Assembly (NCBI GenBank): GCA_964575455.1
Contig: CAZNRX010000007.1
Span: forward strand, 2,252-66,251
Length of the DNA stretch: 64,000 nucleotides
DNA from: an uncultured Anaerolineales bacterium
Lineage (GTDB): Bacteria; Chloroflexota; Anaerolineae; B4-G1
Reading direction: 5' to 3'
How positions within the stretch are numbered: position 1 is the stretch's first letter; the number at the start of each line of letters is the position of its first letter. A program made the translations under genes and the position numbers. Positions 1-21,190 of the stretch are shown here, piece by piece. The notes beneath the pieces were generated by a model. It did no database searches and was not told the DNA's origin. It saw only the letters and a program-made list of their open reading frames with translations.

Positions 1-746
1 TCCTCGTCGACCACTGCAGCACGGGCGGTGTTGATCAAGAAGGCGCCAGGTTTCATCTTCGCTATCTCCGCGGCGCCTATCATCTCTTTTGTCTCCTTCG
101 TCGCAGGCACGTGGAGCGAGACGAAGTCACTACGTCTAAGAAGGCTCTCCAGGGCGACCATCTCCACCAGGCCATCGAGCTCCTCAGTGTCGGCATAGGG
201 ATCGTAGGCCAGCACGTCCATCTGCAGTGCCTGGAGGCGGCTGGCCAGCGCCCTACCTATCTGCCCACAGCCCACCAGCCCCACGGACCTGCCGCTGAGC
301 TCTGGACCCCGAAAATGGAAGTAGGGGATCTTCCCCTCCACGTGCCACCCGGTGGTGCGGAGATGCCTATCAGCCTCACATATGCTGCGTCCGATCGCCA
401 GGATCAGACCCAGCGTGAAATCCGCCACTGACTCGGTGTTGCGACCCGGCGCGTGGAGCACTGGAATGCCTCTCAGTGTGGCCTCTGCTACGTCCACGTT
501 GGAGGGATTGCCGCGGCAGGCCGCAATCAGCTCTAACTCCTTGGCGGCATCCATCACAGATGCCGTAACCTGCTCCACCTCGACCACCAACAAGGAGACA
601 TCTCGGATGAGCTCTTGCAGGCGCTCCTCCGACAGAGCATGATGGGTCTGTCCCCACCCCGCAAGCTCAACCACGTACCCCAGGGATTCGAGAAGCGGAA
701 CAGCCTGGGTGTCGAACTCTGCCAGAACGAGCGCTTTCCTCGTCAA
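1..746 (-). CDS. D-isomer-specific 2-hydroxyacid dehydrogenase (NAD-binding); partial, C-terminus runs off the window edge
   Basis: My minus-strand translation is continuous with no stops from 746 to 1 and contains [11 protein letters not shown] (GxGxxG Rossmann motif) and typical 2-HADH catalytic-domain sequence. TTG start with GGAGGGG RBS overlaps the upstream stop (TTGA). Confidence 0.7.
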
Positions 747-2296
747 CTGTCCCCTCCCTCGCCGCCAAAGTGCTCTTGCATGCCATCGAAGACACGACGA
801 TATGCCCTGTAGTGTGGTTCGTAAGCCATCGCTCGCCCCGGATCGGCCTCATAGCGGGTCGTATCCGGCACCGCGAGCTGGCCTCCGTCCTGGCGACTCC
901 TGAGGACCAGCCGCGCTCCGGCCACCGCAGCAGGCTCTGGCACGTCCGGCACCTCAATGGCGCGCCCCAGGACATCGGTCATCATCTGGGCCCACAAGGG
1001 CACAGACGCACAGCCCCCTGTGAACAGGATGCGGTCGAACGGATGCGGAGCGACCCTCTCCAGATGCTCCAGGTTACCTCGCACACCGTAGCAGACGCCC
1101 TCCAAGACGGACCGAGCCAGGTGGCCCAGGCTGTGACTGACGTCGAAGTTGAAGAGAACGTAGGGGGCTTTGTCGCGCCAGGTGTCGACGGACCAGCGGG
1201 GGTTTGCCGCCACGGCTAGCAATCCGTCGCACCCGATGGGGGCGGCCGAAGCGGCTGCGTTAAGCTCATCGTACGGTACGGAGCCCGCCGCCCCTGTACC
1301 GGCATCCCCATGCGCCTCCAGCAGCAGCCTGCCCAACCATTCGTAGACCATGCCCGTGTGTCCGGCGTTCATCTCCGCCGTCCAACGGTCGGGAAGCAGG
1401 TGCGTGCTGACCCACGCATAGCGTTCTGGATCCACCACGGGGACGTCGGTGGTCAGCATCAGGGGCGCGGTTGAGCCCCCCACGATCACGACGTCGCCGG
1501 GTCGGGTGGCCCCGACACCCAGACTCGCGAACTGCGTGTCCCCTCCCCCAACGTGGACCGGCGTTCCCGGCAGAAGCCCCGTAGCGCACGCCACGTCCTC
1601 CTGCAGGCCACCCAGCACGTGACCGGCCTCGTGCACCGGGGGCAGGATGTCAGTGGGCAGCCCGAGTTCGTGCATCAAGCTATCGCTCCAGCCTCTTCGG
1701 CCGACATCTGCCATCTGCGCCGAGCAGACCATGGTGGCATTCGTGCCAAACTCACCACACAGACGATACAGCACCCAGTCGTGGATGAAGAGCATCGTCC
1801 CGACGCGATCCCAGACCGCGGGCCTCTCGGACCGGAACCAAAGCAGTTTAGGAAGGGTCAACTCCGGCGCCGACCAGTGCCCCGATACATCATAGAGCTC
1901 CTCCACGCCGCAGACGGCGTCGACCACGTAGGTGTACCCGGCGCCGCGCCGGTCGTAGTTGAGGACCCCAGGCCCCAGAGGATGCCCATCGGCGTCCAGG
2001 AGAACGAAACCCTGGCGAAGGCTCGTGGCAGTGATCCCCAGGTAGTCGTCAGCGGGCCGCCCGACGGTCTCCACGACCTCCCGGACCGCGCTGACGATTC
2101 CCTCCCACCATTCCTCCGGTACGAACTCGGCTCGGTGCAGGGCTGGGTGGCGGACCCTGGAGGGACGGGCAGCGACACCGAGCGTGCAGCCTTCCCGCAC
2201 CGAGAAGACGCAGGCTCGCATGCTCCCCGTACCGGCATCGATTACCAAGACCAGGTCTGACATGGGCGACGTCGTCGTGGCTGGCGCCTCCATCAC
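743..2296 (-). CDS. FGGY-family carbohydrate kinase (xylulokinase/glycerol-kinase-like)
   Basis: 517-aa ORF. N-terminal [13 protein letters not shown] matches the FGGY phosphate-1 motif. ATGA start/stop overlap with the upstream alcohol dehydrogenase gene. Confidence 0.8.
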
Positions 2297-3321
2297 GGTA
2301 TCAGGACCGTCTTGATGGAGGTGACGCCCTCACCACTCTTGACGGCGATGGCCTCTCTAAACTCGGACAGCAGGAACGTGTGGGTCGCCATAACGCTGGC
2401 ATCGATCCGCTTCTCCTTCAGGAGCCTAATCGCCGTCGGGTAGCTGTGCGGGCTCAGGTGCCCTCCCTTCACCGTCAACTCCTTGAACTCACTGATCTGG
2501 TTGAAGTCGACCGTCGCCTCGCGACCGTAGACGCCAAAGATGACCAGCCGTCCGCCCTTGCGCAGAAGACCAAGCCCGGTGCGGATCGACGCTGGGCTGC
2601 CGGAGGCTTCGATGTACACGTCGCAGCCGCGTCCGTCGGTGAGGCGATCGATCTCGGCCTGCACGTCATCCTCAATCGGGTCTAGGGCACGGTCGGCGCC
2701 CAGCTGATGAGCGACATCGAGCAAGTCGGCATCGAGGTCAAGACCGATCAAGTGGCGGGGGTGCTTCAGGCGCGTCACCTGAAGCATCCCCATACCAATG
2801 GCTCCCAGTCCCCCGATCACGACGGTGTCGCGCAGCCCAATATCGCCCAGCTCGACGCCATGGATGGAGCAAGCGAGAGGCTCGACGAGAGCTGCCTCCA
2901 CTGCAGAGAGCTCCTCCGGCACCCGATGGACAATGGCACCTCGTGGAATCCGCAGATACTCAGCCCAGGCCCCCACGCAGGTGTCAGGCCGGTCGCATAA
3001 GTGGTAGAGCCCACGCTCGCAGAACCAGCACGTGCGGCACGGGACGATGATCTCTGCCGTGACACGGTCGTCAAGTCGGTACCCGCGGGCCTCCGCCCCC
3101 TCACCCAGCTCTGTGATCCTCCCTACGTACTCGTGTCCGGGTATGTACCTGTCGGGAAGCTCCCAGGGATGGTCCCCACTGAAGATCTTCCGGTCAGCGG
3201 CGCAGATGCCAGCGGCTTCGATCTGAATGACCAGGTCACCTGGTCCGGCGCGAGGTCTTTCGATTGTCTCGTAGTGGAAGTCATGGCCGTTGTGGACCAC
3301 CACTGCCTTCATGCTCGCCAT
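2293..3321 (-). CDS. Zn-dependent alcohol/polyol dehydrogenase (MDR family; sorbitol/threonine-dehydrogenase-like)
   Basis: GHEYVG Zn ligands and the CxxCxxC structural-Zn motif (CRTCWFCERG). Start moved to M11 (MASMKAVVVH), which has a GAGGAGG RBS. Confidence 0.8.
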   Translation of the reverse strand: MASMKAVVVHNGHDFHYETIERPRAGPGDLVIQIEAAGICAADRKIFSGDHPWELPDRYIPGHEYVGRITELGEGAEARGYRLDDRVTAEIIVPCRTCWFCERGLYHLCDRPDTCVGAWAEYLRIPRGAIVHRVPEELSAVEAALVEPLACSIHGVELGDIGLRDTVVIGGLGAIGMGMLQVTRLKHPRHLIGLDLDADLLDVAHQLGADRALDPIEDDVQAEIDRLTDGRGCDVYIEASGSPASIRTGLGLLRKGGRLVIFGVYGREATVDFNQISEFKELTVKGGHLSPHSYPTAIRLLKEKRIDASVMATHTFLLSEFREAIAVKSGEGVTSIKTVLIP

Positions 3322-3331
3322 AGCAGCCTCC

Positions 3332-4357
3332 TCACTCATCAGCGTTCTCATCCCCTGTCGCCGCTTCAGCGCGCTCGATCACGGCGGTGGCGGTGGGCGC
3401 ATCGGTGATGAGCACATCCAGGCATGACGTCCGCAAGGCGCCCAGGATAGCCTCCGTCTTCTCCAGCCCGCCGGCGACGGCCACGGTCATAGGCACCCCA
3501 CGCAGATGGTCCATGCTAAGGGCAACCAGCCGATCATCCACAGCGCACGTGACAGGCTGTCCGTCAAGATCGTAGAAGTGACCGATAATGTCCCCCACGG
3601 CACCTGCTTCGCGCAGCGTGTCGATCTCCTCAGTATTGCAGTTCCCCAGCTGTAGGAGCAGCATGTCCGGGCCCACGTCCCCGATGCCGATCATCGCCAC
3701 GTCCGATTCCGCCGCTTCCTGCAAGGCCCCCGCTATTTGCGGGTCATTTGCCAACGTGTCTCGCATCTCCGCTGTATCGGTCACGACGGGCGCGAAGACG
3801 TGCCGGGTGCGCCCACCACACGCCTTCGCTAGACTCCAGCTCACGTTGTAGGTGTCGAAGCCGAGATCGGTCTGACCGGCCCCACCGACCATCTCCTGAA
3901 AGATGCAGCCCTCCTTGTGTCCGTCCACCTCCAGGAAGGGTGGTATCTGGGCCAGGGTTCGGCCCATCCCGAGACCGATTCTGACGTTTGGCCGGATCAG
4001 ATCCTGCAGAAACGTGGCGCCCGCCTTGCCCAGAGAGCGCCTAAGGCCCTCCCCCTCGTCCTCGGTGGGAACGATGAAAGCATCGCTCAGGCCGAACCCA
4101 TCACAGAGTCGCTGCTCGAGCCGCAGGTGGCCCGTGGGTTTCGTGATGCGGAATTCGACGACGCCCGTCTCGCGCGCCTCCTTGAGGAGACGCGTCACCT
4201 TCACGCGCGAGAGATGGAGCCGCTCCGCTGTCTCCTTTTGTGTCAGGCCTTCGACATAGTAGAGCCAGGCAGCGCGGACGAGCACTTCCTCTTCACTGAT
4301 ACCTTTCACGCTCCGCTCCTTTGAACGATACGTCCCTCGCATCCGCCCGACAGCCAT
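3332..4357 (-). CDS. SorC/DeoR-family sugar-binding transcriptional regulator
   Basis: N-terminal HTH (GLTQKETAERLHLSRVKVTRLLKEARE) plus a C-terminal sugar-phosphate-binding domain, 341 aa. It heads the catabolic cluster. Confidence 0.75.
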   Translation of the reverse strand: MAVGRMRGTYRSKERSVKGISEEEVLVRAAWLYYVEGLTQKETAERLHLSRVKVTRLLKEARETGVVEFRITKPTGHLRLEQRLCDGFGLSDAFIVPTEDEGEGLRRSLGKAGATFLQDLIRPNVRIGLGMGRTLAQIPPFLEVDGHKEGCIFQEMVGGAGQTDLGFDTYNVSWSLAKACGGRTRHVFAPVVTDTAEMRDTLANDPQIAGALQEAAESDVAMIGIGDVGPDMLLLQLGNCNTEEIDTLREAGAVGDIIGHFYDLDGQPVTCAVDDRLVALSMDHLRGVPMTVAVAGGLEKTEAILGALRTSCLDVLITDAPTATAVIERAEAATGDENADE

Positions 4358-4462
4358 TGGCCGTTGGCAAGACTAACAGCCTCTCCCGCGTCCAGATCTT
4401 ACACTGCGCCACTGTGATTCCCCGCATTGCGTGCCTTCAGCGCCCCCCACACCAGGCCATAT

Positions 4463-5335
4463 TCACCGTCGATTGACGGCCTCTCGAGCCCAGGCGTCGT
4501 GCAGGATGGCGTAGAACTGATCCACGTTGAGGATTCGGGTAGGGAGATTGACGACGGCACCGTCATCCGCCTCGCTGTGGACGATCGTCCCGGACGCCAG
4601 ATCTGACAGCGCGGTCGAGACTCGCATGGGATGCTCGTCGAACAGGCTGCCGAAGGAGACATAGACCGCTGGCAGCAGGTCCCAGAGGTACTCGCTTGGC
4701 CCCAGCCCCTCAGCCACGCGCCAAAACAGGTAGTCACGGAGCATAGCATAGGTCTTGCTGCGGTCATACTGCTCGATGATCGGCAGCTGGCGCAGGTTGA
4801 AGGGCACTTGCAGGCAGATCTGCGCCGTCATGAGCGTCACGGGACAAGAGGCACGCAGCACCCGTTGTGCCGCGATGGGATCCGACGAGAGATTGAGCTC
4901 GCCAACCCTCTCCCAACCCGGTGCGTCCAGGGCGCCCGTATAGCCCCCCATGATCACGATCTCCTCGAGGTGATCGAAGAACTGCGGGTCTTGCTCCGCA
5001 GCTGCTCTCAGATTGTTCAGCGGACCGAGGGCCAGGACTGTGATCTCGCCTGGATGAGCGGCTGCGGTCTCGACGAGGAACCGTGAGGCGTCTGTCTGCA
5101 TCTCCCCAGCCTCATTGGCCCCTCGGTGCAGGGGAAGCGCCTGTCCAATACACTCCAGGAGCCGCTTCGTCGCCCCATAGGTCTGCTCTCCGGTGCTGTT
5201 GCCAAACACAGTGGTGACGCCCAGTACGTCGATGTCCGGGCGGCCGAAGAGATACAGAAGCGCCTGCCCATCATCGACAGGCTTCCCAGGCATGCCCATG
5301 GTGTTGTCACAGTCGCAGATCACGCGTCTTTTCAT
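4463..5335 (-). CDS. Nucleoside hydrolase (IU-NH family)
   Basis: N-terminal ICDCDNTMG....DDG aspartate-cluster motif typical of inosine-uridine-preferring nucleoside hydrolases. 290 aa. Confidence 0.85.
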   Translation of the reverse strand: MKRRVICDCDNTMGMPGKPVDDGQALLYLFGRPDIDVLGVTTVFGNSTGEQTYGATKRLLECIGQALPLHRGANEAGEMQTDASRFLVETAAAHPGEITVLALGPLNNLRAAAEQDPQFFDHLEEIVIMGGYTGALDAPGWERVGELNLSSDPIAAQRVLRASCPVTLMTAQICLQVPFNLRQLPIIEQYDRSKTYAMLRDYLFWRVAEGLGPSEYLWDLLPAVYVSFGSLFDEHPMRVSTALSDLASGTIVHSEADDGAVVNLPTRILNVDQFYAILHDAWAREAVNRR

Positions 5336-5389
5336 CGATGAGCACCCATTATCTCGGTAGGGCAGCAGCGGGCACGAAGCATCAGACCC

Positions 5390-6250
5390 TCACACCTCCA
5401 CCTGGTCCCAGGCCTGGAAGAGCACCTGCATGAAGCGTTCCCGATCAACTATAGTGCTGGGCATGTTGACGCGGCTTCCCTCTCCCTGCTCTCCGATTAC
5501 CAGCGTGCCGGTCTGGAGGTCCTCGACGGTGGAAGTTATACAAACCGGGTTCTCGTCGAACAGTTCCGGGTGGGAGAAGTAGACCGCGGGCAGCAAGTCC
5601 CAGAGATAGAAGACCGAGAGGCCACACGCCGCCTCCATCGCCTCCAGCCATTGGCGCAGGATCTGCAACGTTTCGGCGCGCCAATGACTCAGCTTCGACA
5701 GATGCTCTTCCTGGAAGGGCGCCTGGAGGCAAGTATGCGCGTTCATGACCGTGACAGGGCAAGGGGCGTGCAGGACATCGAAGGCCGCCCTGGGATCCGA
5801 GGCCAGGTTCAGCTCATCCACCTCTCGCTTACCCACACGCAGCGGCCGGAGATAGCCCCCCATCAGCGCTATCTCTTTCACCTGCTTGAAGAAGTCAGCA
5901 TTGACCTGCGCTGCCCCGCGTAGGTTGCCCACCGGCCCAATGGCCAGCACACTGATCTCTCCTGGATGGGCGGCCACGGTCTCGGCCAGGAAATGGGCCG
6001 CTGGCGTCGGTGCCTGGTCCGCCTCACCCGCACCTCTGTATAGCGGTATGTCCTCCCGACCGACGTCCTCCAGCAAGGCCTCGGTGACGGGATGCACCTC
6101 GTCGATGGTCCCGTTGCCGAAGGTGGTGGTGATGCCCACCACCTCGATATCGGGACAGCCCAGCAGGTAGAGGAGCGTCAGGCCATCGTCTACCTCGCGA
6201 TACGAAATGCCCATCGTGTTGTCACAGTCTAGAATCACGCGATGTGTCAT
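5390..6250 (-). CDS. Nucleoside hydrolase (IU-NH family), paralog
   Basis: The ORF-track entry runs to 6553, but homology starts at MTHRVILDCDNTMG (M102), which has a GGGGAGG RBS. 286 aa. Confidence 0.8.
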   Translation of the reverse strand: MTHRVILDCDNTMGISYREVDDGLTLLYLLGCPDIEVVGITTTFGNGTIDEVHPVTEALLEDVGREDIPLYRGAGEADQAPTPAAHFLAETVAAHPGEISVLAIGPVGNLRGAAQVNADFFKQVKEIALMGGYLRPLRVGKREVDELNLASDPRAAFDVLHAPCPVTVMNAHTCLQAPFQEEHLSKLSHWRAETLQILRQWLEAMEAACGLSVFYLWDLLPAVYFSHPELFDENPVCITSTVEDLQTGTLVIGEQGEGSRVNMPSTIVDRERFMQVLFQAWDQVEV

Positions 6251-6284
6251 TGGTCCTACCTCCCCGACGTCCTTTTCTGATGCG

Positions 6285-7403
6285 CTATGACTTGTACGGC
6301 GCCAGCAAGCAGTCCACCTGGGCCACGGTCTGGCGCAGGCTGCGCTGCCTTTCCCGCACCACTTCCGCGAGACCGAGCGACAACGCCTCGATTGAGGGTT
6401 CTGGATTCGCTCGCTCGACCGTTTCTCGCCACTGGGACGGAATGGCGTCTGTCCCGTGCAATGCCCCGGCGATGGCTCCACCCACGCTGGCGTAGCTGTC
6501 GTTATCGCGCCCGTAGTTGACGCACCCAAGGAGCGTTTGCGAGATATCTCCATCTGCCGCGACCAGCATGCCCAGGGCCACCGCCAGGGTCTGGGCGGCT
6601 TCTGAACCCAGGGGGCTCACCTGGAGGGCCTCGTAGTAGTCCGGTCTGAGACTGAACACGTCGTCGTGACGCTGGGCTATGTCGACCGCCTTCCGCACGA
6701 GTCTCTCGTTGACCTGAAAGACGTGCTCGTACCAGTGCCAGCGTCGTGTCAGCTCGCCCTCCACGCGGTGAGCCTCGGACGCGGTCATCACGTCCTCCAC
6801 TACCGACTCGACAGTTGCTTCTGGAGACGTGGCTGCCGAGACCGCTGCGGCGGCCATGGCTGCCGAGTACTTGGCGTACCCATCGCTGATGAAGTCAACG
6901 TCGTAGGAGAGCGCAAAGGCACGCTCCGGATCGCTCGGGCAGATGAGGCCTAGCGGGGCGTTCATCATGATGAAACCGTTGGTCGGTTGACCACCCCAGA
7001 TCAGCTTATCCTCCCCGTAGATGCCGGCCAGGACGTACTCCTCCAGGAAGCCGCGCTCCAGGTCAGTCTCGGCGGCGTAGTACGCGTCGATGCAGGCTTT
7101 GACCAGATCGCCCCGTCGGGGCAGTCCCTCACAGTTGAGGATGGCCCGACACAGGATGTGCTTGAGCCGCGTGTCGTCCGTGTAGCTGCCGGCCTCGGTC
7201 GAGAAATGCGAGTGGTAGTCGGGTGCATCCGCATACGGCAGGAGCTCGTCCACAACCCCGTGCTGCTCGACGATTTCCTCGTAGTGCCAGCCTTCCACGG
7301 GGCCGCCCATGGCATCGCCAATGGCGCCGGCTAGCATGGCGGCGTGGGTCTTGTCGAAAAGGATGGTCTGCTCCAAGTTGTCCGGATCCATGTCGATCTT
7401 CAC
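6285..7403 (-). CDS. ADP-ribosylglycohydrolase family protein (DraG/ARH-like)
   Basis: N-terminal AMLAGAIGDAMGGPVEG matches the ADP-ribosylglycohydrolase metal-binding signature. 372 aa. Confidence 0.8.
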   Translation of the reverse strand: MKIDMDPDNLEQTILFDKTHAAMLAGAIGDAMGGPVEGWHYEEIVEQHGVVDELLPYADAPDYHSHFSTEAGSYTDDTRLKHILCRAILNCEGLPRRGDLVKACIDAYYAAETDLERGFLEEYVLAGIYGEDKLIWGGQPTNGFIMMNAPLGLICPSDPERAFALSYDVDFISDGYAKYSAAMAAAAVSAATSPEATVESVVEDVMTASEAHRVEGELTRRWHWYEHVFQVNERLVRKAVDIAQRHDDVFSLRPDYYEALQVSPLGSEAAQTLAVALGMLVAADGDISQTLLGCVNYGRDNDSYASVGGAIAGALHGTDAIPSQWRETVERANPEPSIEALSLGLAEVVRERQRSLRQTVAQVDCLLAPYKS

Positions 7404-7409
7404 TCCATA

Positions 7410-8528
7410 CTACTTGTAAGAGCCAAATGCTCTTCCGACCTCGGCCATGACCTGCAGGCTCTCGACAGGCGTGTCGTGGTACATCTCGTCGCCGGTCATC
7501 AAGATGTACCCGCCGCCCACCTTGCCTGTCAAGACCGTCTTCTTGACCACTATGGCTATCTCCTCGGTCGTCCCTTTGCGGAGTAGGTGGACCTGGTCGA
7601 TGTTCCCGAGCACCACGCCCGAGTCTCCCAGGACGCGCTTGACGGTGCCGATATCCCCGTCCCCCATGGGCGGCGATGGGAAGGTCTCGAAGGCGTCGCT
7701 GCCTAACTCTGTGTACAGGCCGAGCAGGTTGCTGCTGTAGCCGCAGTTGTGATAGACGGCGCGAAGCCCGCGCTTGTGAAGCTCCTGTATGTAGCGGCGA
7801 TCGTAGGGCAGGACGTTCTCCCGATAGAAGTCCGGTCCGACGAAGTTGCCCTGGGCCATCAGCCCGCCGATCTGACAGAGGTCTGGCTTGAGCCCCTCCA
7901 GTGCGTCGAGCAACGGCGTCTCGTAGATGATGGCCCAGTTCAGCAAGCGCTCGTAGAGCGTGGGCCTCTCTAGGGCGTCCATGGTGAGCTGGGCCAGACC
8001 TCGCAGGTAGAGGGCTGCCCCCGTATGGGCGGCTCCGCCACCGTACGTGACCACGATTCCGTCATCCCCGATCAGTTCCAGGGCTCGCTCCAGCGGTTTC
8101 GTGTCGACGGGTGGCCTAACCACGCGGTATCGTTCCATCAGGCGCAGGTCATCCTCTGTGCTGACCAGGTGCTCGTCCGTATGGCGGAAGAACCGACCCG
8201 GTTGCGACTCCTTCACGACGACCACTTCGCGCAGCTCACCCTCGGGCGTCTCGATTGTCTTGACTCGCCTCTGCGCGCCGTCCAGGTCGCGGATTCGCGT
8301 CGTGAGCCGCCACTGGTCGGTCTGCCAGGTTGTCACCTCGTCCAGGTAGACGCGCAGGATGGTGTCGAAGCCAAGGGCCTTGGACACTCGGATCGTCTCG
8401 GCAAGGGTATCGAAGTCGGTGTGGCCCAGATACCCCTGCAGGAAGGCCGGGTCGATCCAGGCCACCACGGGCACCCGGTCCGGTATGCTGCCTTCCAGCA
8501 CGTTCAACAGACGCTGCCTCGAATCCAT
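7410..8528 (-). CDS. Uroporphyrinogen-decarboxylase (URO-D)-like family protein (MtaA/CmuA-type putative methyltransferase)
   Basis: 372 aa with URO-D fold-like sequence and an HNCG motif as in Zn-dependent MtaA-like proteins. No haem-pathway context. Confidence 0.65.
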   Translation of the reverse strand: MDSRQRLLNVLEGSIPDRVPVVAWIDPAFLQGYLGHTDFDTLAETIRVSKALGFDTILRVYLDEVTTWQTDQWRLTTRIRDLDGAQRRVKTIETPEGELREVVVVKESQPGRFFRHTDEHLVSTEDDLRLMERYRVVRPPVDTKPLERALELIGDDGIVVTYGGGAAHTGAALYLRGLAQLTMDALERPTLYERLLNWAIIYETPLLDALEGLKPDLCQIGGLMAQGNFVGPDFYRENVLPYDRRYIQELHKRGLRAVYHNCGYSSNLLGLYTELGSDAFETFPSPPMGDGDIGTVKRVLGDSGVVLGNIDQVHLLRKGTTEEIAIVVKKTVLTGKVGGGYILMTGDEMYHDTPVESLQVMAEVGRAFGSYK

Positions 8529-8633
8529 GCGTCTCCTAGTGGCGCCGCGAGACCGGAGGGCGGATGACCGCCCTCTCCCCGCGGGCGTTGGGCGAGACGG
8601 CGCCAGACCAACCCCGGTCGCAGACTGGGCATC

Positions 8634-9683
8634 TCACTCGCGTGGCATCAACCAGATGTTATCCCGGGGGAGGGTCAGCGAGACCGTGTCATCCTGGCAC
8701 AGACGCTTGGCCCAGGACGCGTCGGCCTCAACCTCAAACGACCACGCCTCCCTCCGCGCCGTGAGACGGGTGCACGTACCCAGGTAGATGCAGGTGTCGA
8801 TCTTGGCCTCGATGGTGTTTTCCGCCCCCTCCTCGCCGATCCGTAGGTTCTCGGGACGCACCGTCAGGATCACGGGGCCGTCTTCGATGTCCTGCTGGTT
8901 CACGTTGAAGACACCCAGCGGCGTCTTGACCTCCCGTCCCTGCTTCAGGCCTTCCAGGAAGTTGACCGCGCCGAAGAAGTGAGCGATCTCCTCGTTGGCC
9001 GGGCGCTCGTAGAAGGCGCTCGGCTCAGCGAACTGCTGGAGCTCGCCCTCGAAGATCAGGGCGACCTGGTCAGCCAACATGACCGCCTCCTCCTGGTCGT
9101 GGGTCACGAACACCATGGTGATGTCGAACTCGCTCTGGATGCCGAGGATGAGATCGCGCATCTCATCACGCAGGTGGGCGTCGAGGTTGCTGATCGGCTC
9201 GTCGAGCAGCAGGACCTTGGGCTCGATGATCAGCGCGCGCGCCAGGGCCACCCGCTGCTGCTGACCCCCGGAGAGCTGGCTGGGGCCGCGATCCTGGTAG
9301 CCGGGCAGGCGGACAAGATCGAGCATATCGGCCACCTTCTCGTCGATGGTCGCCTTGTCCACGTGGCGCATGCGGAGGCCGAAGCCGACATTATCGCCGA
9401 CCGACATGTAGGGGAAAAGCAGGTACTGCTGGAACACCATCGCAGCACCGCGCTTCTCGGCCGGGACGTCCAGCACCGATCGACCGTCGAACGTGATGTC
9501 GCCCTCCGTCGGCCACAGCAGTCCGGCGATCATCTTCAGGGTCGTCGTCTTGCCGCAGCCGGAGGGTCCCAGAAAGGCCGTGATCCTGCCCGACTCTATC
9601 GTCAGATCGAGATCGTTGACGGCCATGACCTCATCCTCGCCCTGGAAGACCTTCTTGAGCCCGTGCAGACCTACCTCAGTCAT
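8634..9683 (-). CDS. ABC transporter ATP-binding protein (PotA/FbpC-like importer ATPase)
   Basis: Walker A GPSGCGKTT, ABC signature LSGGQQQR, Walker B LLLDEP, and a C-terminal TOBE-like domain. Start re-called at MTEVGLHGL (M69) with a GGAGGCG RBS. Confidence 0.85.
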   Translation of the reverse strand: MTEVGLHGLKKVFQGEDEVMAVNDLDLTIESGRITAFLGPSGCGKTTTLKMIAGLLWPTEGDITFDGRSVLDVPAEKRGAAMVFQQYLLFPYMSVGDNVGFGLRMRHVDKATIDEKVADMLDLVRLPGYQDRGPSQLSGGQQQRVALARALIIEPKVLLLDEPISNLDAHLRDEMRDLILGIQSEFDITMVFVTHDQEEAVMLADQVALIFEGELQQFAEPSAFYERPANEEIAHFFGAVNFLEGLKQGREVKTPLGVFNVNQQDIEDGPVILTVRPENLRIGEEGAENTIEAKIDTCIYLGTCTRLTARREAWSFEVEADASWAKRLCQDDTVSLTLPRDNIWLMPRE

Positions 9684-10558
9684 GCCTCTACGCCTCCTAT
9701 TGCAACGCTCTCGCCCGTCAGGTAGCGAGAGCTGACGATCAAGTATAGAACCGACGGTGCGATGAAGATCAAGCACAGTACCGCTGTGAAGGGATGCTTT
9801 CTCGCTCCGGCAAACGTGAACAGCAGCAGGGGCACCGTCAGCACCCTCCCGCCGCTGATGAGAAGCGTGGTGATGTACTGACCCCACGAGATGATGAAGG
9901 CGAACAGCCCGGCCACAACGATGCCGGGCAGGATCGTGGGGAGCGTCACGTGGAGGAACGTGCGCACGGGGCCCGCCCCCAGCGTCCTGGCCTGCTCCTC
10001 GTACTCGGGGTCGTAGTTGGCGAAGACGCTGGCCATCACGGTGGTGACGTAGGGCGTGATGGGGATCAGATGGGCCAGCACCACGCCGACCATCGTCCCG
10101 GACAGTCCCAGCTTGATAAAGATCACATGAATGCCCATGAGGGACGTCATCGCGGGGACGATGGAGGGGGCCAGGATCAGGAACTCCACGAGTCGCTTAC
10201 CGCGGAAGTTGTGAAGTCCGAGCGCCCGTCCCGCCGGCACGCCGATGATCAGCGAAAGTAGGGTGGCAGCCAGCGCGATGATGCCCCCTGCTCGCGCCGC
10301 CTCACCGGCGCGAGAAGCCGGGGAGAGCACGTATCGCCAGGCGTGCAGGCTCCACTCGGGCGGAGCCAGTTTGGGGTAGAACCAACGGTTGGTAAACGCC
10401 CAAAGGACGATCGGAAGCAGCGGCAGCAGGATGCTCACCACGATGCCCGCCATCACCAGATAGCTCACCACGCGGAGAGGGTCGCTCCGTCCTGGTCGGG
10501 CCGCATCCCCACCACCCCTCACGCGTCTGAGGATTCCCTCGTATGCTCTATTCGCCAT
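9680..10558 (-). CDS. ABC transporter permease (PotC/CysW-like)
   Basis: Six predicted TM helices with the EAA-loop region. Overlaps the ATPase gene, suggesting translational coupling. Confidence 0.8.
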   Translation of the reverse strand: MANRAYEGILRRVRGGGDAARPGRSDPLRVVSYLVMAGIVVSILLPLLPIVLWAFTNRWFYPKLAPPEWSLHAWRYVLSPASRAGEAARAGGIIALAATLLSLIIGVPAGRALGLHNFRGKRLVEFLILAPSIVPAMTSLMGIHVIFIKLGLSGTMVGVVLAHLIPITPYVTTVMASVFANYDPEYEEQARTLGAGPVRTFLHVTLPTILPGIVVAGLFAFIISWGQYITTLLISGGRVLTVPLLLFTFAGARKHPFTAVLCLIFIAPSVLYLIVSSRYLTGESVAIGGVEA

Positions 10559-10621
10559 ACCACTCCCCCTGTTACACCAATATGCGCCGAGAAGCCAGCA
10601 GCCGTTCGTGTTCGCTTCACG

Positions 10622-11506
10622 CTATTCCTGTCGGACGCGGGCCGCCAGCCGCATGTAGAACCAGACCAGGATGGTGACCAGCACGGCCATAACCGTGGCC
10701 ATCGCCATGGCCTCCTTTCGGAAGCCCAGATCGACGTTCGTGTAGTACTCGAAAGCCAGGACCGCCAATGCCTTGGGATGGGACGCGCCTAACAGGAACG
10801 GGATGGCATAGGAGCTGAACACGGCGGCGAAGACCAGAATCGCGCCGCGCAGGAGTCCCGGCATGATAAGCGGAAGAAGCACGTGCCGCACGCGCTGCCA
10901 CCGGTTGGCGCCCAGCGTGCGCGCCAAATCCTCATAGTCCTCGCCGACGGACTGCAGGGTGGCCAACAGGATGATGCCCGTGAACGAGACGCCCTTCCAG
11001 ACGTAGACGAGGATGACGGAGATCAGGTTCTTGTCGTACACCAGCGCCGGGAAGCTCGTGGGGTCCTGTGCTAGTCCGACCTGATACGCCAGCCGCGAGA
11101 GCAGACCGGCCCGTGAGAGCAAGAAGATGGCGGCAATGGCGCCCATCACGTGTGGGATGGGGATGTTGAGCTGGAAGATGAAGGTGACGACCTTCTTCCC
11201 CCACAGGGACTGTCGCAGCACCAGGGCGCAGATCACGGCCAGAACCGACATCAGCACCGTGGTGGAGATCGACACCCGGAGCGTCAAGAGGAGCGCGCCG
11301 ACGAACCTTTCGTCCGTCAGGACGTTGACGTAGTGCTGCAGGTTCACCCCGTAGTCCCCGGCCAGCGGCTCCATCCCGAAGCTCTGCAAAACGCCGAGGA
11401 CCAGCCCGCCCATGAACAACACGAGGATGACCGCCAGCGCACCGGACAGCATCAGGGGCACCTGGAGTCGTCTATAGAGCCTGGTTGTGGTCAGCCGAGA
11501 AAGCAT
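10622..11506 (-). CDS. ABC transporter permease (PotB-like)
   Basis: Polytopic membrane protein. Start re-called at M11, which has a GGGAGGG RBS. Confidence 0.8.
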   Translation of the reverse strand: MLSRLTTTRLYRRLQVPLMLSGALAVILVLFMGGLVLGVLQSFGMEPLAGDYGVNLQHYVNVLTDERFVGALLLTLRVSISTTVLMSVLAVICALVLRQSLWGKKVVTFIFQLNIPIPHVMGAIAAIFLLSRAGLLSRLAYQVGLAQDPTSFPALVYDKNLISVILVYVWKGVSFTGIILLATLQSVGEDYEDLARTLGANRWQRVRHVLLPLIMPGLLRGAILVFAAVFSSYAIPFLLGASHPKALAVLAFEYYTNVDLGFRKEAMAMATVMAVLVTILVWFYMRLAARVRQE

Positions 11507-11580
11507 ATGTGGCCCTCCCTGAGGATGGCGCGACACGGGGCTCTCTGATGCCCGTGTCGCGCGCTCTCTTTAAGCCGTGG

Positions 11581-12888
11581 CTAGTCGAGCTGGACGTTCT
11601 CCTCCCAGCCTTCCTCGATGGCGGTCAGCCAGTCAGCCTGGAGCTCCGGCAGCTTGAATTCCGCTCTTACGTCCGGCGGCAGCGTGTAGGGTCCTAGCTG
11701 ATCCGCAAAGGCCTGGTACCGCTCCTGGTACTCCGGGGGGAGCGAGTCGAGGTCGACCGGCGGGAAGGTGTCCTGCACCTCCAGCCGGAAGTAGAACTGG
11801 GCCTCGAGCCCCGTGATGTAGTTGGCCGTGACCACCGCGGCTGCCGGATGGGCGGCGTTGTAGGCGACGGCGATGTAGTTGGTGTTGCCGATCATCCCGC
11901 TCTTCAGCATGTGGGGACGGGCCGTCTCTGGCAGCGTGCCCTCGTCCACCAGGGATTTGATGCCGGAGCCGCCGTAGCTGATGTACATGTCGATCTGAGC
12001 ATTGGCGAATAGATCCTGCAGCTCGGCGCTGCCAGTGGGGTAGGTGGTTCCCTCTCGCCACAGCGAGGGCTCGAGCTCGTTGAGCAGATCCCAACACGCC
12101 TGGAACTCCTCCTCGAACAGCTCCTGGTCGAAGGGGCCAAGGAACTGCTCGTAGCCACCGGTGGCGTGGTAGCAGAAGTGCCGCACGTTCAGGCTTCCCG
12201 TGAAGTCGGGCGGCGCGGGGTAGGTGAACCGTCCTGGGTTGTCCTTGATCCATTGGATCAGGGCCGCCATGTCCTCCGGGGGCTCCGGCATTCTGGCGCT
12301 GTCGTATACCATGGCGCTCTGCGCCGAGCCCCACGGCATCTCGTAGCCCTCAACCGGGTAGCCGAAGTCGTTGGCTATGGCGGGATCGCTCCAATCGTAG
12401 TACTGGCCTGAGGGCACCGACTCCGCCCAGGGTCCGTAGAGCAGATCGGCCTCCTTCATGGTGCGGAAGTTCTCGCCGTTGATCCACATGATGTCGACGG
12501 CGCCGCCGGTGTCCTTCCCGGCTGCCTTCTCGTCCCGCACCTGGTTGATGAACTCGGTGGGTCCGGCCACCGGCACCTGCTTCATCGTGATGTTGTAGTT
12601 CTCCTTGAGCTTATCGGCCAGCCAGCCGTTGACCCATTCGTTGTAGACTGAGCTACCGCCCCACATCCAGAAGGTGACCTCCTGGCCGTTGGCCTGGGCG
12701 ACGATCTCCTCCCAGGTCATGCCGTCGAGGGGCGCCGGCAGGCCCAGCGTCTCTGGGGCCTCCGTGGGCTCCTCCGTCGGAGGTTCTGTCGGCACCTCGG
12801 TCGGTTCGGGGGTCGGACCGGCGCAGGCCCCCATGACCAGGGCGACGACGATCAGGGCACTAAACACAACCAGCGACTTGCGCATCAT
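11581..12888 (-). CDS. ABC transporter substrate-binding lipoprotein (SBP family 1, PotD/AfuA-like)
   Basis: Signal peptide with lipobox (VMGACAG), then a Pro/Thr/Glu linker and a 400-aa periplasmic-binding-protein domain. Confidence 0.8.
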   Translation of the reverse strand: MMRKSLVVFSALIVVALVMGACAGPTPEPTEVPTEPPTEEPTEAPETLGLPAPLDGMTWEEIVAQANGQEVTFWMWGGSSVYNEWVNGWLADKLKENYNITMKQVPVAGPTEFINQVRDEKAAGKDTGGAVDIMWINGENFRTMKEADLLYGPWAESVPSGQYYDWSDPAIANDFGYPVEGYEMPWGSAQSAMVYDSARMPEPPEDMAALIQWIKDNPGRFTYPAPPDFTGSLNVRHFCYHATGGYEQFLGPFDQELFEEEFQACWDLLNELEPSLWREGTTYPTGSAELQDLFANAQIDMYISYGGSGIKSLVDEGTLPETARPHMLKSGMIGNTNYIAVAYNAAHPAAAVVTANYITGLEAQFYFRLEVQDTFPPVDLDSLPPEYQERYQAFADQLGPYTLPPDVRAEFKLPELQADWLTAIEEGWEENVQLD

Positions 12889-12964
12889 CTCACTCCTTTG
12901 TTTCTAGTCTCCACTTCCTATGGGCTCTTGGGCCCACACCTGTCTTGCACGTCACGACGAAGCC

Positions 12965-14428
12965 TCACTTGGTGGGTAAATCACCTCCTTCCGGCATGGT
13001 ACTTGCAGATGTCGAGAAATCACGATAGGGGACAAGTTTCATGATGTCGATGTCCGCCCAAGCGGCCAGCTCCTGGAAGGCGTCCGCCCAGTCGCCCAGG
13101 GCCAGAGGATAGTGATGGGGAAGGCCCTGGTAGCTTGCCGTCTCGATGAGATCGCGGGCCCGAGCTGGTTCGCCGTCGATGCGCAAGTCGGTCACCCACC
13201 CCCGGCTCCCCTGGTAGCCCCGGCTTGGTCCTTCGACCACCTGTCCGGTCAAGAGGAAGGCCTGGGAGGCGTCCGGGCTGAACCGAGCCACCGTCAGCGG
13301 GCCCGGTCGCAGCACCACGTCGGACGATGCGCCAGAGCGAGGCGCTCCCGGCGGGTTGGAGCGATCGAGGGTGGGGTGATACGTGATGCACTGACCGGCG
13401 TCGTCAGCCAGGCCACCCGGCGTGGGCCCACAGTGCCACAGATGGATCAGGTCTTCCTCGTCGATCACAGTCACCAGATCCATCATCGTGGTTGGTGCTT
13501 CGCTCAAGTGGTGCAGAGCGAGCATACTGATCGCTCCCACCACGTCTCCCTCGCACGACGTGGGAAGTCCGTGGTCGTTCAGCCAGGCGACGGCGGCACA
13601 AGGCCCCAGGCCGTCCATCTGCTCCTGGAACTCGGGCCAGCAGCGGAGAGCGACGGCGTCGTAATCACCATCCACGGCGGCGTCTCGGACGGCCAGGACG
13701 GCTCGGCCGGTTAGCTCGAGCCACGACCGGTCAACGGCCACTCGCGCCGCGCTTGCTGCCATGTCGTCGACCAGTGTCGAGACCTCCTGCTCGGTGTAGC
13801 CTTGGGCCCGCTCGAAGACATCGCCCAGGTCGTGCCGCTCCACCCTCAGGCCCAGCCGGGTCTCGATGGCTGCCGGGTCATAGGTCAGGTTGTAGAAGGT
13901 GGGCGCCACGTCCCCCAGCAGCAGGATGCGGGTCGCACGCAGGTTCTTCAGCGCGGTGAGCGCCCTGACCGTAAGGCACAGTCGCCGTTGAAAGAACTCG
14001 TCATCGGCATCACCGTAGAACCATTTGAAGGGCTGCTGGCGGTCCGGAAGGTTCTTTCGGAGCAGGCTGGTGGCCAGGTTCAGGCCACTGAACGAGTTGA
14101 GCGGGATCTCGCCGCTCAGCGACGGCTCCGGCACCGACCAGATGCCCAACGGCGCCTCTATCTTGAGCAATGGCATCCACACGTCACCGAGCGCAAAAGA
14201 GCTGGCCTGGATCAGAACGAAGTCAACCTCTTCGTCGGCGAGCCGCCGCGCCGCCTTCTCAGCGTCCTCCGCGGACTGCACGGCGTCCGGGAGAGGCAGG
14301 AGATTGAAACCCCAAGCCTCGGCCAGCGCCTCCAGGCCCTCCACGGCGTGTTGATAGACGCCGTACTCCTTGGCCGAGAAGTTGGCGAAGGATGTGCCCA
14401 CAAAGCCTAAGCGGAGTTTCTCCATCAA
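12965..14428 (-). CDS. L-fucose/L-arabinose isomerase-like family protein
   Basis: 487-aa soluble protein with sugar-isomerase-like N- and C-terminal regions. Assigned by weak similarity only. Confidence 0.45.
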   Translation of the reverse strand: MMEKLRLGFVGTSFANFSAKEYGVYQHAVEGLEALAEAWGFNLLPLPDAVQSAEDAEKAARRLADEEVDFVLIQASSFALGDVWMPLLKIEAPLGIWSVPEPSLSGEIPLNSFSGLNLATSLLRKNLPDRQQPFKWFYGDADDEFFQRRLCLTVRALTALKNLRATRILLLGDVAPTFYNLTYDPAAIETRLGLRVERHDLGDVFERAQGYTEQEVSTLVDDMAASAARVAVDRSWLELTGRAVLAVRDAAVDGDYDAVALRCWPEFQEQMDGLGPCAAVAWLNDHGLPTSCEGDVVGAISMLALHHLSEAPTTMMDLVTVIDEEDLIHLWHCGPTPGGLADDAGQCITYHPTLDRSNPPGAPRSGASSDVVLRPGPLTVARFSPDASQAFLLTGQVVEGPSRGYQGSRGWVTDLRIDGEPARARDLIETASYQGLPHHYPLALGDWADAFQELAAWADIDIMKLVPYRDFSTSASTMPEGGDLPTK

Positions 14429-14429
14429 C

Positions 14430-15323
14430 CTATCCTTTCGAGAAGTGAATCCGAATCAGCCAGAAGACGCCTGCCAGGATGAGCGCCCCGCCCAGCAGCT
14501 CGAGAGCGCTCGGCAGCTCGCCCAAGGCAAGATACGCCATGGGCACGACGAAGAGCGGCTGCACGCCCAGGACCAGTGTGACGTGGGAGAGCGACCAGCA
14601 CTGGAGAGCCCGGTAGCGGAGCAGGAAGCTGGCGCAGGGCCCCAGGAAGGCGCCCAACAGGGTCACGAGCCAGTATGAGCGGGCCGCGCGAAAATCCAGC
14701 CTGCCGGTGGCGAGCCCCCAGCCCGCGATGGCCACCACCCCCACCGCCGCTCTGTAGAAGACCACCACGTTGGGGTGGGTCACCGCCACGGCCACCTTCG
14801 CCAGCAGGCCCTGGACCGCACCCAGACAGCACGCCAGCAGCGTCAGAATCACACCTGCACCGACCAGCTCCCAGCGTCCAAAGGTGGTGACGACCCCACC
14901 CGCGATCATCAGCGCCCCAGGAGCCAGCTCCATCGGCGTCAACCTCTCGCCCAGGAAGACGGCGCTGGCCAGGATGGTCAGTAAAGGAGCGAAGCGCCAC
15001 AGGAAGGAGGAGAGCGAAGAGGTCAGCAGGCTGAGGCCGCCCCAGGTGAGGAGCATGCCGACGCCACTTGCCAGCCCAAGGACGGTCATCCTACCCACCA
15101 GGTCACCGGGCAGCCTCAGATCCTCGCCATGGCCGGATATCAGCACGGCGAGCAACGAGTAGCCCGCAGCAGCCGCGCACCACACCAGCCCGAATGTCTC
15201 TATGTTGAATGCCCCCAAGCCGTACTTGGCGGTGATGAAATTCGTGGAGAGTAAGAAGGTACCAGCTATGGACAACACGAACCCTCTCGTTGGCTGTGTC
15301 GACACGGTGTTCCGTGCTCCCAT
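14430..15323 (-). CDS. DMT-superfamily (EamA-like) transporter
   Basis: About 10 TM helices with two EamA-like halves. Start re-called at MGARNT to avoid overlap with the upstream gene. Confidence 0.7.
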   Translation of the reverse strand: MGARNTVSTQPTRGFVLSIAGTFLLSTNFITAKYGLGAFNIETFGLVWCAAAAGYSLLAVLISGHGEDLRLPGDLVGRMTVLGLASGVGMLLTWGGLSLLTSSLSSFLWRFAPLLTILASAVFLGERLTPMELAPGALMIAGGVVTTFGRWELVGAGVILTLLACCLGAVQGLLAKVAVAVTHPNVVVFYRAAVGVVAIAGWGLATGRLDFRAARSYWLVTLLGAFLGPCASFLLRYRALQCWSLSHVTLVLGVQPLFVVPMAYLALGELPSALELLGGALILAGVFWLIRIHFSKG

Positions 15324-15336
15324 GGCTAACTGATCC

Positions 15337-18649: not shown

Positions 18650-18672
18650 CGTCTTTCTCACGCGTTCCTCCC

Positions 18673-20799: not shown

Positions 20800-21075
20800 G
20801 ATCGATCTCCTTTGGTTAGAGCTCTCTCGGTTGCGAACCAGCATATCATATTTGTGTACATTTGTCAAGTGGTTGAACAAGCGTTCATGCCGCAAGGTGC
20901 ACGCGGTCCCGTATGGGCGCCGGTCGCGACAGAATGATACTGAGGATGCACGAAGAGGCTTGGAGATATCTGAACGGACGGGGATGTGCCCGTGACACCA
21001 AGCCGCCTTCGAGACGAACTTATAGTCAGCCGAAGATGCCAAGCCAGTATCCGCCGGGAGCGGAATACTCAACGC

Positions 21076-21190
21076 GGTCACCCGGGTCGACACTGTCACC
21101 CAGGTCGACACTGTCACCCAGGTCGACACTGTCACCCGGGTCGACGCTGTCACCGGGTCGACGCTGTCACCGGGTCGACGCTGTCACCGG
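21076..21190. repeat. Tandem direct repeat, about 6.5 copies of a 17-18-bp unit GTCGACRCTGTCACC(C)RG, each carrying a SalI-type GTCGAC palindrome
   Basis: Read directly from the sequence. Lies between the stop of the bactofilin-like gene and the start of the URO-D-like gene. Confidence 0.9.

Follow-up and report, generated by a model that had tools for sequence, protein, structure and literature searches.

The 64-kb stretch of DNA analysed here (contig CAZNRX010000007.1, hereafter the window) stems from an uncultured Anaerolineae bacterium and carries an array of catabolic genes, all on the minus strand, in which an ATP-binding cassette (ABC) importer, two N-ribohydrolases, an ADP-ribosylglycohydrolase-family hydrolase (ARH), a SorC-type regulator and two MtaA-like proteins of the uroporphyrinogen decarboxylase (URO-D) superfamily, UROD1 and UROD2w, are encoded together with sugar-converting enzymes (Table 1). 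Domains were called by Pfam and NCBIfam profile searches, and gene starts were set from open reading frames (ORFs) and ribosome-binding sites. A preliminary description had placed a SorC-regulated locus at 3332–12888. Each gene it named was found on the minus strand, all domain assignments were borne out by Pfam and NCBIfam, and the co-directional, tight packing it pointed out is reflected in spacings that range from −20 bp, where the SorC gene and that of the zinc-dependent alcohol dehydrogenase ADH-3 overlap, to 105 bp, a distance found once before the UROD1 gene and once before the SorC gene. A second stop/start overlap, of 4 bp, connects ADH-3 and the FGGY kinase. The limits of the locus proved too narrow, as conserved synteny reaches the window edge downstream and approximately position 20,800 upstream, which adds the second MtaA-like gene, two more zinc-dependent ADHs, an SftI-like isomerase, an LsrK-like FGGY kinase and a D-2-hydroxyacid dehydrogenase. 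The array is most likely a catabolic gene unit of approximately 21 kb that begins near 20,868, where a promoter-like site lies, and reaches the left window edge. It is of a familiar general kind of catabolic operon, assembled from uncharacterised subfamilies, and unusual in linking riboside hydrolases with MtaA-like proteins; no paper describing this gene combination was found in the literature.

Table 1. Features of the catabolic gene array, listed from the left end of the window (MDR, medium-chain dehydrogenase/reductase; HTH, helix-turn-helix; IU-NH, inosine-uridine nucleoside hydrolase)
Feature	Position	Strand	Evidence
D-2-hydroxyacid dehydrogenase, 5' part (gene leaves the left end of the window)	3..740	-	PF02826 139 bits, PF00389 61 bits
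FGGY-family sugar kinase, LsrK-like	743..2296	-	PF00370, PF02782
ADH-3, Zn-dependent MDR dehydrogenase, threonine/sorbitol-dehydrogenase-like	2293..3351	-	PF08240, PF00107
SorC/DeoR(Bacillus)/LsrR-type transcriptional regulator	3332..4357	-	PF04198 202 bits + HTH
N-ribohydrolase B (IUNH-B; IU-NH fold, Trp-type)	4463..5335	-	PF01156 132.4 bits
N-ribohydrolase A (IUNH-A; IU-NH fold, Trp-type), start corrected	5390..6250	-	PF01156 131.0 bits
ADP-ribosylglycohydrolase-family hydrolase (ARH), likely start ATG 7391, 368 aa	6285..7403	-	PF03747 147 bits
UROD1, URO-D-superfamily MtaA-like protein	7410..8528	-	PF01208 73.5 bits
ABC transporter ATPase with TOBE domain, start 9686 ('MTEVGL')	8634..9686	-	PF00005, PF08402
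ABC permease 2	9680..10558	-	PF00528
ABC permease 1	10622..11536	-	PF00528
Lipoprotein solute-binding protein, YnjB family	11581..12888	-	NCBIfam PRK11622
SftI-like sugar isomerase-like protein	12965..14428	-	NCBIfam NF048012, no Pfam match
EamA-family transporter (accessory)	14430..15404	-	PF00892
GH42 glycoside hydrolase (accessory)	15337..17478	-	PF02449, PF08532
ADH-2, Zn-dependent MDR dehydrogenase	17627..18700	-	PF08240, PF00107
ADH-1, Zn-dependent MDR dehydrogenase	18673..19713	-	Pfam
UROD2w, second MtaA-like URO-D-family protein, first array gene	19729..20799	-	PF01208 185 bits
Promoter-like site TTGACA-17 nt-TATGCT, ~40 nt upstream of UROD2w	20840..20868	-	read from sequence

The conservation of the array was assessed on syntenic contigs, which were reached via homologues of UROD1 and of the N-ribohydrolases and then compared with the window by tblastn. 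Approximately ten independent contigs repeat the gene order at 40–95% protein identity, and the organisms are Anaerolineae wherever they are named; recurrence to this extent shows that the arrangement is not due to chance. The core order reads isomerase, binding protein, permease, permease, ATPase, (UROD1), ARH, one or two N-ribohydrolases, SorC, ADH, FGGY kinase and 2-hydroxyacid dehydrogenase. Identities to the window proteins amount to 78–96% in L003 (metagenome), 52–90% in L014 (GCA_964390305.1), 55–70% in L004 (an Anaerolineae metagenome-assembled genome), 49–69% in L006 and 40–62% in L002 (both metagenomes), and a partial order is seen in L005, L013 and two further contigs. The isomerase gene also lies directly upstream of the binding-protein gene in L002 (54%), L003 (95%) and L014 (59%), ADH-3 follows SorC in every complete cluster, and orthologues of the 2-hydroxyacid dehydrogenase follow the FGGY gene in L002, L003, L004, L006 and L014 (53–90% identity). 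The genes at the upstream end have counterparts as well, with orthologues of ADH-1 and ADH-2 in L014 (90% and 84% identical, respectively) and of UROD2w in L014 (90%) and L010 (66%).

A comparison of gene neighbourhoods for co-occurrence had been suggested as a check in the preliminary description, and its four enzyme types do recur together, with the reservation that UROD1 and ARH are frequent accessories and not parts of the fixed core, which consists of the transporter, the N-ribohydrolase(s) and the SorC–ADH–kinase–dehydrogenase group. L014 has the whole array, beginning with the second MtaA-like gene and then two ADHs, though without UROD1, GH42 and EamA, while the L004 cluster is otherwise syntenic and does not contain ARH; neither UROD1 nor ARH is an obligatory step. 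The EamA and GH42 genes are shared by the window and L003 only. Other additions are seen elsewhere: in several clusters the binding-protein gene is immediately followed by a third URO-D paralogue, genes for LarA-like, HIBADH-like or Fe-ADH proteins are present in several, and a sulfatase gene adjoins the UROD1-like gene in 4 of approximately 11 contexts (L005 6840–8300, L013 3427–4776 and contigs YRhn5nDu and TDJXnmwp), often together with a gene for a LarA-like (nickel-pincer) isomerase. The substrates of these sulfatase-bearing variants may be sulfated. The E1/E2 genes that come after the L014 and L004 clusters were considered as an acetoin-dehydrogenase-like system for C–C cleavage, and this was rejected, since NCBIfam places both with ordinary pyruvate dehydrogenase.

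The two N-ribohydrolases are paralogues with 49% identity, and both score far above the PF01156 gathering score of 34.2 bits. Gene A starts at ATG 6250 behind a GGGGAGG ribosome-binding site, in agreement with an identical gene call in L001 (286 aa); a 387-aa ORF reaching to 6553 was discarded as an over-extension into the ARH gene. Across 27 sequences, D8, D10, D21, D22, E146, N148, W217 and D218 are invariant or nearly so. The Glu and Asn that bind ribose (E166 and N168 by C. fasciculata numbering) are represented by the invariant E146 and N148, which match 'AEAN' of the group I enzyme 4kpo in the alignment. Also invariant is the stretch Y-L-W217-D218, in which the Trp aligns with the catalytic His of 4kpo and directly precedes the last Ca2+-binding Asp. 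The residue at this position, which serves the leaving group, is His in group I, Trp in group II and Cys in group III nucleoside hydrolases, and W217 is the aromatic-stacking signature of the purine-type group II (PMC8910321). With the catalytic residues kept, both N-ribohydrolases look active as judged by their sequences.

The fold, the Ca2+-binding Asp residues, the Glu/Asn pair and the Trp, which corresponds to Trp260 of the T. vivax enzyme, are shared with the group II (inosine–adenosine–guanosine, IAG-type) nucleoside hydrolases. The enzymes differ from that group in an interrupted Ca2+ fingerprint, as D8-C-D10 and D21-D22 of the DxDxxxDD motif are kept at a spacing of 10 residues instead of 3 (DCDNTMG-x6-DD, a 7-residue insertion), and in a shortened loop in which the second signature Trp/His was not identified. 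The best sequence matches are group I enzymes of plants and bacteria (E ~1e-18). The subfamily comprises more than 780 homologues, mostly from Chloroflexota, and elsewhere its members adjoin a major facilitator superfamily (MFS) transporter (L008, L010) or an APH-type kinase (L009). Nothing relevant on Anaerolineae nucleoside hydrolases was found in the literature.

The ARH protein exceeds the PF03747 gathering score of 26.2 bits by a wide margin and misses the cut-offs of the named subfamily models, with 47.6 against 337 bits for DraG and 36.2 against 490 bits for Tri1; its overall score also sets it far apart from ARH3. Five orthologues share the invariant motifs GDAMGGPVEG, TDDT and GRDNDS, and the residues E37, T75-D76-D77-T78 and D300-N-D302-S303 within them do not vary and have counterparts in the alignment with ARH3 and MJ1187. 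The di-metal site is thus predicted to be intact, and ARH looks active. While the PF03747 fold and all di-metal ligand motifs are held in common with ARH3, DraG and MJ1187, only the two metal-binding segments align with the solved members, the protein falls below every named subfamily cut-off, and one cluster dispenses with it. The gene context suggests that its target is a small-molecule riboside rather than a modified protein.

In the preliminary description, UROD1 was called MtaA-like, and this assignment was upheld. A profile of the UROD1 family matched the MtaA structure 4ay7 with an E value of 5e-7, as opposed to 0.03 for the chloromethane methyltransferase CdmB and approximately 0.5 for HemE structures. 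An identity as HemE was rejected, as UROD1 gave no match to the HemE model TIGR01464 and its likeness to HemE is limited to the superfamily fold level; the AlphaFold2 (AF2) model (pLDDT 90) is equally close to HemE and MtaA in Foldseek (TM ~0.65). The UROD1 sequence 'YHNCG' aligns with 'LHICG' of MtaA, and the invariant Asp347 falls on the Cys of the MtaA 'PGCG' motif, which is the third Zn-binding Cys. His260, Cys262 and Asp347 are at least 90% conserved down to 23% identity, and an additional four-stranded beta-sheet of approximately 50 residues is inserted at about residues 67–119. The third ligand is Asp in UROD1, His in the paralogue encoded after the binding-protein gene and Cys in UROD2w, and the types differ only there. 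UROD2w thus retains the complete canonical His-x-Cys...Cys motif; it reaches only 72 bits with the HemE model. Against the MtaA/CmuA models (TIGR01463/PRK06252), both proteins remained below the cut-off, with 59.2 against 235.4 bits for UROD1 and 136.7 against 244 bits for UROD2w.

UROD1 is a rare protein. Approximately 25 homologues above 45% identity were found among 5.8 billion proteins, essentially a single cluster at 50% identity among 1.84 billion representatives (the wider clade comprises 106 clusters at E ≤ 1e-30), and only 2 of 185,579 species genomes, both Anaerolineae, encode it. A scan of metagenome contigs for further UROD1 loci yielded two weak fragments only. One of the homologues, 59% identical (P0018, L007 409–3091), is encoded immediately downstream of a membrane-bound HgcAB-like corrinoid/ferredoxin fusion, which scores 315 bits with NF043039 (cut-off 285) and has the cap-helix motif 'NIWCSS'. 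The pairing of such a fusion with a URO-D-like protein in L007 may bear on the function of these fusions.

The profile that lies closer to MtaA, the aligned metal motif and the corrinoid neighbour in L007 support a reading of UROD1 as a putative enzyme of metal-dependent, corrinoid-linked alkyl transfer rather than decarboxylation. Corrinoid methyltransferases with specific substrates, CdmB among them, belong to the URO-D family (PMC13222342). UROD1 resembles MtaA, MtsA, the MtvB-type O-demethylase MT-I and CdmB in its TIM-barrel fold, its nearest solved relative being the MtaA-type 4ay7, as well as in the aligned His-x-Cys metal motif and in the location of one homologue beside a corrinoid protein. 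It departs from them in its third ligand, in the beta insert and in its score under the cut-off. The cluster also differs from the operons of corrinoid methyltransferases, as it does not contain a corrinoid protein, an activase or a methyl-acceptor enzyme and has the character of a riboside/sugar operon, not of a C1 operon. The earlier statement that no corrinoid partner is encoded nearby was substantiated for the entire window by tblastn with the L007 HgcAB-like protein, by a regular-expression search (DxHxxG...SxL...GG) and by domain scans. The window does contain a gene for the large subunit of the B12-dependent methylmalonyl-CoA mutase (58296–59960, 764 bits), which shows that the organism uses cobamides. 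A literature search for URO-D-like genes in polysaccharide loci yielded nothing relevant.

The transporter had been labelled PotABCD-type, which is correct only in a loose sense: the binding protein belongs to the YnjB family, and the ATPase and permeases remain under the PotA, PhnT and FbpC cut-offs. The ATPase scored 312 bits with PhnT2, 293 with FbpC and 290 with PotA (cut-off 482), all below the respective cut-offs, while the binding protein passed the YnjB model PRK11622 with 432 bits against a cut-off of 203 and gave no PotD/PotF match. A sequence search of the PDB with the binding protein returned no match, so that it has no PotD or FbpA relative by sequence. A signal peptide, a lipoprotein Cys and a Pro/Thr/Glu linker can be read from its sequence. 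In Foldseek, its AF2 model (pLDDT 89) shows a similar degree of resemblance (TM 0.5–0.64) to PhnS-like and PotD proteins and to binders of sugars, dinucleotides, thiamine and iron, and from such mixed remote fold matches no ligand class can be deduced. The system thus shares with E. coli YnjBCD both the family of the binding protein and the layout of two permeases and one ATPase; as the substrate of YnjBCD is not known and no YnjB ligand was found in the literature, the match does not give a ligand.

The remaining core genes form a sugar module together with the regulator. The SorC gene does not take the place of an upstream regulator gene but sits in the middle of the array, and its product combines the PF04198 domain with HTH matches at residues 26–69; the NCBIfam models of DeoR (179 bits) and LsrR (163.6 bits, cut-off 486) were matched below their cut-offs. 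For the FGGY kinase, the best NCBIfam model was LsrK (240.7 bits against a cut-off of 528), followed by xylulokinase (203), and the best PDB match was the LsrK structure 5ya0 (E = 8e-52; the next match had 3e-38). The best PDB matches of ADH-3 are L-threonine 3-dehydrogenases and sorbitol dehydrogenase, and ADH-2 and ADH-1 score best with IolM (205 bits) and TDH (218 bits), respectively, both below cut-off. The isomerase-like protein matches the sulfoquinovose isomerase SftI model NF048012 with an E value of 2e-48, its 165 bits standing against a cut-off of 700.

The pairing of a SorC-family repressor with an FGGY kinase, with LsrR/DeoR and LsrK as the nearest characterised relatives, is reminiscent of the Lsr system and of Bacillus DeoR. 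The locus is set apart from Lsr by scores of approximately half the equivalog cut-offs (LsrK, LsrR), by a different class of ABC transporter and by the absence of LsrF, LsrG and LsrACDB homologues. LsrK and LsrR/DeoR handle a phosphorylated C5 sugar derivative, and the relationship of kinase and regulator to these proteins suggests that the effector may be a phosphorylated intermediate of the C5 type.

From the gene content, the conserved order, the family assignments and the conserved catalytic residues, we infer a chemistry, a methyl transfer, a mode of regulation and a class of substrate: the array would import and dismantle a small molecule with ribosyl (pentofuranosyl) bonds, probably methylated, by a combination of riboside uptake, de-ribosylation, corrinoid-dependent demethylation and sugar catabolism. 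We regard the chances of this reading as evenly balanced. In such a route, the compound would be taken up by the YnjB-type lipoprotein and the ABC system with its two permeases and one ATPase, after which the two Ca2+-type N-ribohydrolases would split beta-N-ribosidic bonds in the cytoplasm and ARH, where present, a second type of ribosyl linkage. UROD1 (His-Cys-Asp) and UROD2w (His-Cys-Cys) would remove or transfer an O- or S-methyl group via a corrinoid partner encoded elsewhere. On the freed sugar, the SftI-like isomerase could then carry out an isomerisation, the MDR dehydrogenases an oxidation or reduction and the LsrK-like FGGY kinase a phosphorylation, with the product entering central metabolism and the 2-hydroxyacid dehydrogenase handling a C3/C4 acid. 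A phosphorylated intermediate is probably what the SorC/LsrR-like repressor would sense.

Several observations weigh against this reading. UROD1 lies far under the MtaA/CmuA cut-off and has Asp in place of a Zn-binding Cys, so its chemistry may be different, and neither the tblastn and motif searches nor the Pfam scans turned up a corrinoid protein, an activase for one or a methyltransferase of the pterin-binding type, be it in the window or in the syntenic clusters. The 'stepwise' order of the preliminary description is not fixed, since UROD1 is missing in the close relative L014 and ARH in L004. No aldolase or other evident exit for a phosphorylated sugar is encoded in the array. Anaerolineae commonly encode members of the N-ribohydrolase subfamily, in many cases with an MFS transporter as the sole neighbour, and the two enzymes may be ordinary nucleoside hydrolases. 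Finally, a single transcription unit is deduced from spacing and synteny only, and a scan for promoters and terminators was uninformative, as it gave fewer matches than shuffled sequence.

An alternative is that two functionally separate units adjoin each other, namely an ordinary unit for nucleoside uptake and salvage (ABC transporter, ARH and N-ribohydrolases) and a generic polyol/pentulose operon (SorC, ADH, FGGY kinase and 2-hydroxyacid dehydrogenase), the URO-D-like proteins being unrelated to methyl transfer. SorC, an MDR dehydrogenase and an FGGY kinase are a common pattern of polyol operons. In favour of this alternative are also the 105-bp gaps before UROD1 and SorC, the variation of UROD1, ARH, GH42 and EamA between clusters and the wide occurrence of the N-ribohydrolase subfamily elsewhere with only an MFS transporter or an APH-type kinase as neighbour. 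Nevertheless, the hydrolase genes and the SorC–ADH–FGGY–2-hydroxyacid dehydrogenase genes adjoin in the same order on every contig that is long enough, and the isomerase and binding-protein genes likewise always adjoin. Adjacency that is kept down to 40–60% identity is hard to explain without functional coupling, and we consider separate units unlikely.

The candidate substrates are SAM (S-adenosylmethionine)-derived ribosides such as 5'-methylthioadenosine (MTA), 2'-O-methyl nucleosides and arsenosugars, which cannot be ranked with the present data. A more specific proposal, which we put forward as doubtful, is an anaerobic route for methylated ribosides in which the substrates would be 2'-O-methyl nucleosides left by RNA turnover, MTA or arsenosugars (dimethylarsinoyl ribosides), the His-Cys-Asp clade of URO-D/MtaA-like proteins would pass the methyl group to a corrinoid, and ARH would act as a small-molecule ribosidase and not remove ADP-ribose from proteins. 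Sulfated arsenosugars would explain the sulfatases in the related clusters.

The preliminary description had proposed uptake and de-ribosylation of a ribosylated compound, with ADP-ribose derivatives as one option. An importer is indeed coupled to ribosyl-bond hydrolases in a conserved unit; for the ADP-ribose option nothing specific was found. In such a scavenging of ADP-ribose or NAD-derived compounds, ARH would act on an ADP-ribosylated or alpha-linked compound and set ADP-ribose or ribose free, the N-ribohydrolases would strip adenine and nicotinamide, and the ribose would be catabolised. All di-metal residues of ARH3 and DraG are kept in ARH, the nucleoside-hydrolase-fold protein XopQ binds ADP-ribose (PMC8910321), and the better fold matches of the solute-binding protein include a protein that binds dinucleotides (TM 0.61–0.63), although this match is no better than those to sugar, polyamine or phosphonate binders. 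However, no Nudix, phosphatase, macrodomain or ribokinase gene was found in any cluster, ARH scores far below the DraG and Tri1 models, and the otherwise complete L004 cluster does without ARH. The proposal also gives no role to the three MDR dehydrogenases, the SftI-like isomerase and the MtaA-like proteins, and it appears improbable to us.

To the same degree improbable is a specialisation on by-product ribosides of SAM that bear a 5' substituent (5'-methylthioadenosine, 5'-deoxyadenosine or S-adenosylhomocysteine, SAH), in which the N-ribohydrolases would serve as nucleosidases and set the 5-substituted ribose free, the SftI-like isomerase and the FGGY kinase would yield a ketose phosphate from it as in the dihydroxyacetone phosphate (DHAP) shunt, and the MtaA-like enzymes would take the methyl off the methylthio group, much as MtsA acts on methyl sulfides. 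MtsA, a member of the URO-D family, demethylates methylthio compounds. An omega-sulfo-deoxy sugar is the substrate of the isomerase's sole characterised relative, these N-ribohydrolases have Val where canonical enzymes use an Asn to bind the 5'-OH (alignment read by eye), and the kinase and regulator are nearest to LsrK and LsrR, which handle an SAH-derived product. Related loci also offer suggestive neighbours, as the L009 N-ribohydrolase lies beside an APH-family kinase and that of L010 has as neighbours an MtaA-like gene, a methionine-salvage-type RuBisCO-like protein (215 against 409 bits), an aldolase and an isomerase homologue, even if these L010 neighbours are encoded on the other strand and may be there by coincidence. 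On the other hand, the window cluster lacks an aldolase, MtnA, MtnK and a RuBisCO-like gene, all of the family matches lie under their cut-offs, ARH is left without a role, and the sulfatase and LarA-like genes of four related clusters do not fit.

Very improbable, lastly, is an importer for polyamines, iron or phosphonates that merely lies beside unrelated enzymes: binding-protein homologues do carry the Joint Genome Institute (JGI) label 'putative spermidine/putrescine transport system substrate-binding protein' and PhnT, FbpC and PotA are the best-scoring models for the ATPase and permeases, but all of those scores are below the cut-offs, the binding protein falls into the YnjB family without a PDB sequence match, PotD, FutA and TbpA are only remote fold matches (TM 0.5–0.57), and the transporter genes are linked to hydrolase genes in all clusters.

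To our knowledge, corrinoid-dependent methyl transfer has so far been described for methanol, methylamines, methyl sulfides, aryl methyl ethers and chloromethane. If the methylated-riboside reading is true, the array would join two normally separate areas, riboside/sugar catabolism and corrinoid-dependent methyl transfer, and would provide the first physiological context for the His-Cys-Asp clade of URO-D-like proteins, for the YnjB transporter family and for a small-molecule role of an ARH-family hydrolase. In practical terms, it offers a defined group of five to six proteins for expression and a limited number of ligands as candidates. Should the modules be merely adjacent, the locus would be an ordinary nucleoside-plus-polyol locus of an uncultured Chloroflexota bacterium.

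No riboswitch was found in the window at Rfam gathering scores, nor at E ≤ 1 in positions 1–24,700, which includes cobalamin and SAM riboswitches; no conserved SorC operator site emerged on comparing the intergenic regions of orthologous loci, and intergenic RNA folds no better than shuffled sequences. A hairpin, UGGGCCCAAGAGCCCA, lies at 12905–12925 between the isomerase and binding-protein genes and is conserved in L003 (~5500–5520), with a folding energy like that of shuffled sequence. At 21072–21188, between the stop of a bactofilin-like gene (21195–22406) and the putative promoter site, a tandem array contains 6.6 copies of the 18-bp unit ACGCTGTCACCCGGGTCG with 93% matches, which could be a regulator-binding array or a mere repeat.

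Among the related loci, L010 (8584–20858) deserves a fuller description, as an MFS transporter and an N-ribohydrolase gene of the type found in the window are arranged there back-to-back with an array on the opposite strand. This array encodes the MtaA-like protein with 66% identity to UROD2w, the RuBisCO-like protein (below cut-off, as given above), a protein with a fructose-bisphosphate (FBP) aldolase domain and the isomerase homologue (37%), as well as a DAK kinase, a xylose-isomerase-like TIM protein, an EIIC-GAT protein and a GH42 enzyme.

In the window itself, an S-adenosylmethionine hydroxide adenosyltransferase (PF01887/PF20257) is encoded at 33465–34460, 13 kb from the array. Such enzymes split SAM into adenosine and methionine, and the gene may be relevant if the cluster handles SAM-derived ribosides. 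Beside the array, a frame for a sigma factor of the extracytoplasmic function (ECF) type, detected in translated intergenic sequence, lies upstream of a LiaF-like/toast-rack gene and a bactofilin-domain gene (22415–24600, minus strand), and the group is a probable envelope-stress module. It is followed at 24661–30760 by a molybdoenzyme locus of the xanthine dehydrogenase/carbon monoxide dehydrogenase (CODH) type, in which a 651-aa DUF6909 protein (682 bits) is encoded between the genes of the FAD/[2Fe-2S] subunit and the Mo-binding subunit. Further along, a gene for an ABC1-type kinase (35906–37678) precedes that of a 2673-aa sensor histidine kinase with 11 GAF and several PAS domains (37689–45710), and a QueA gene of queuosine biosynthesis is located at 62327–63448.

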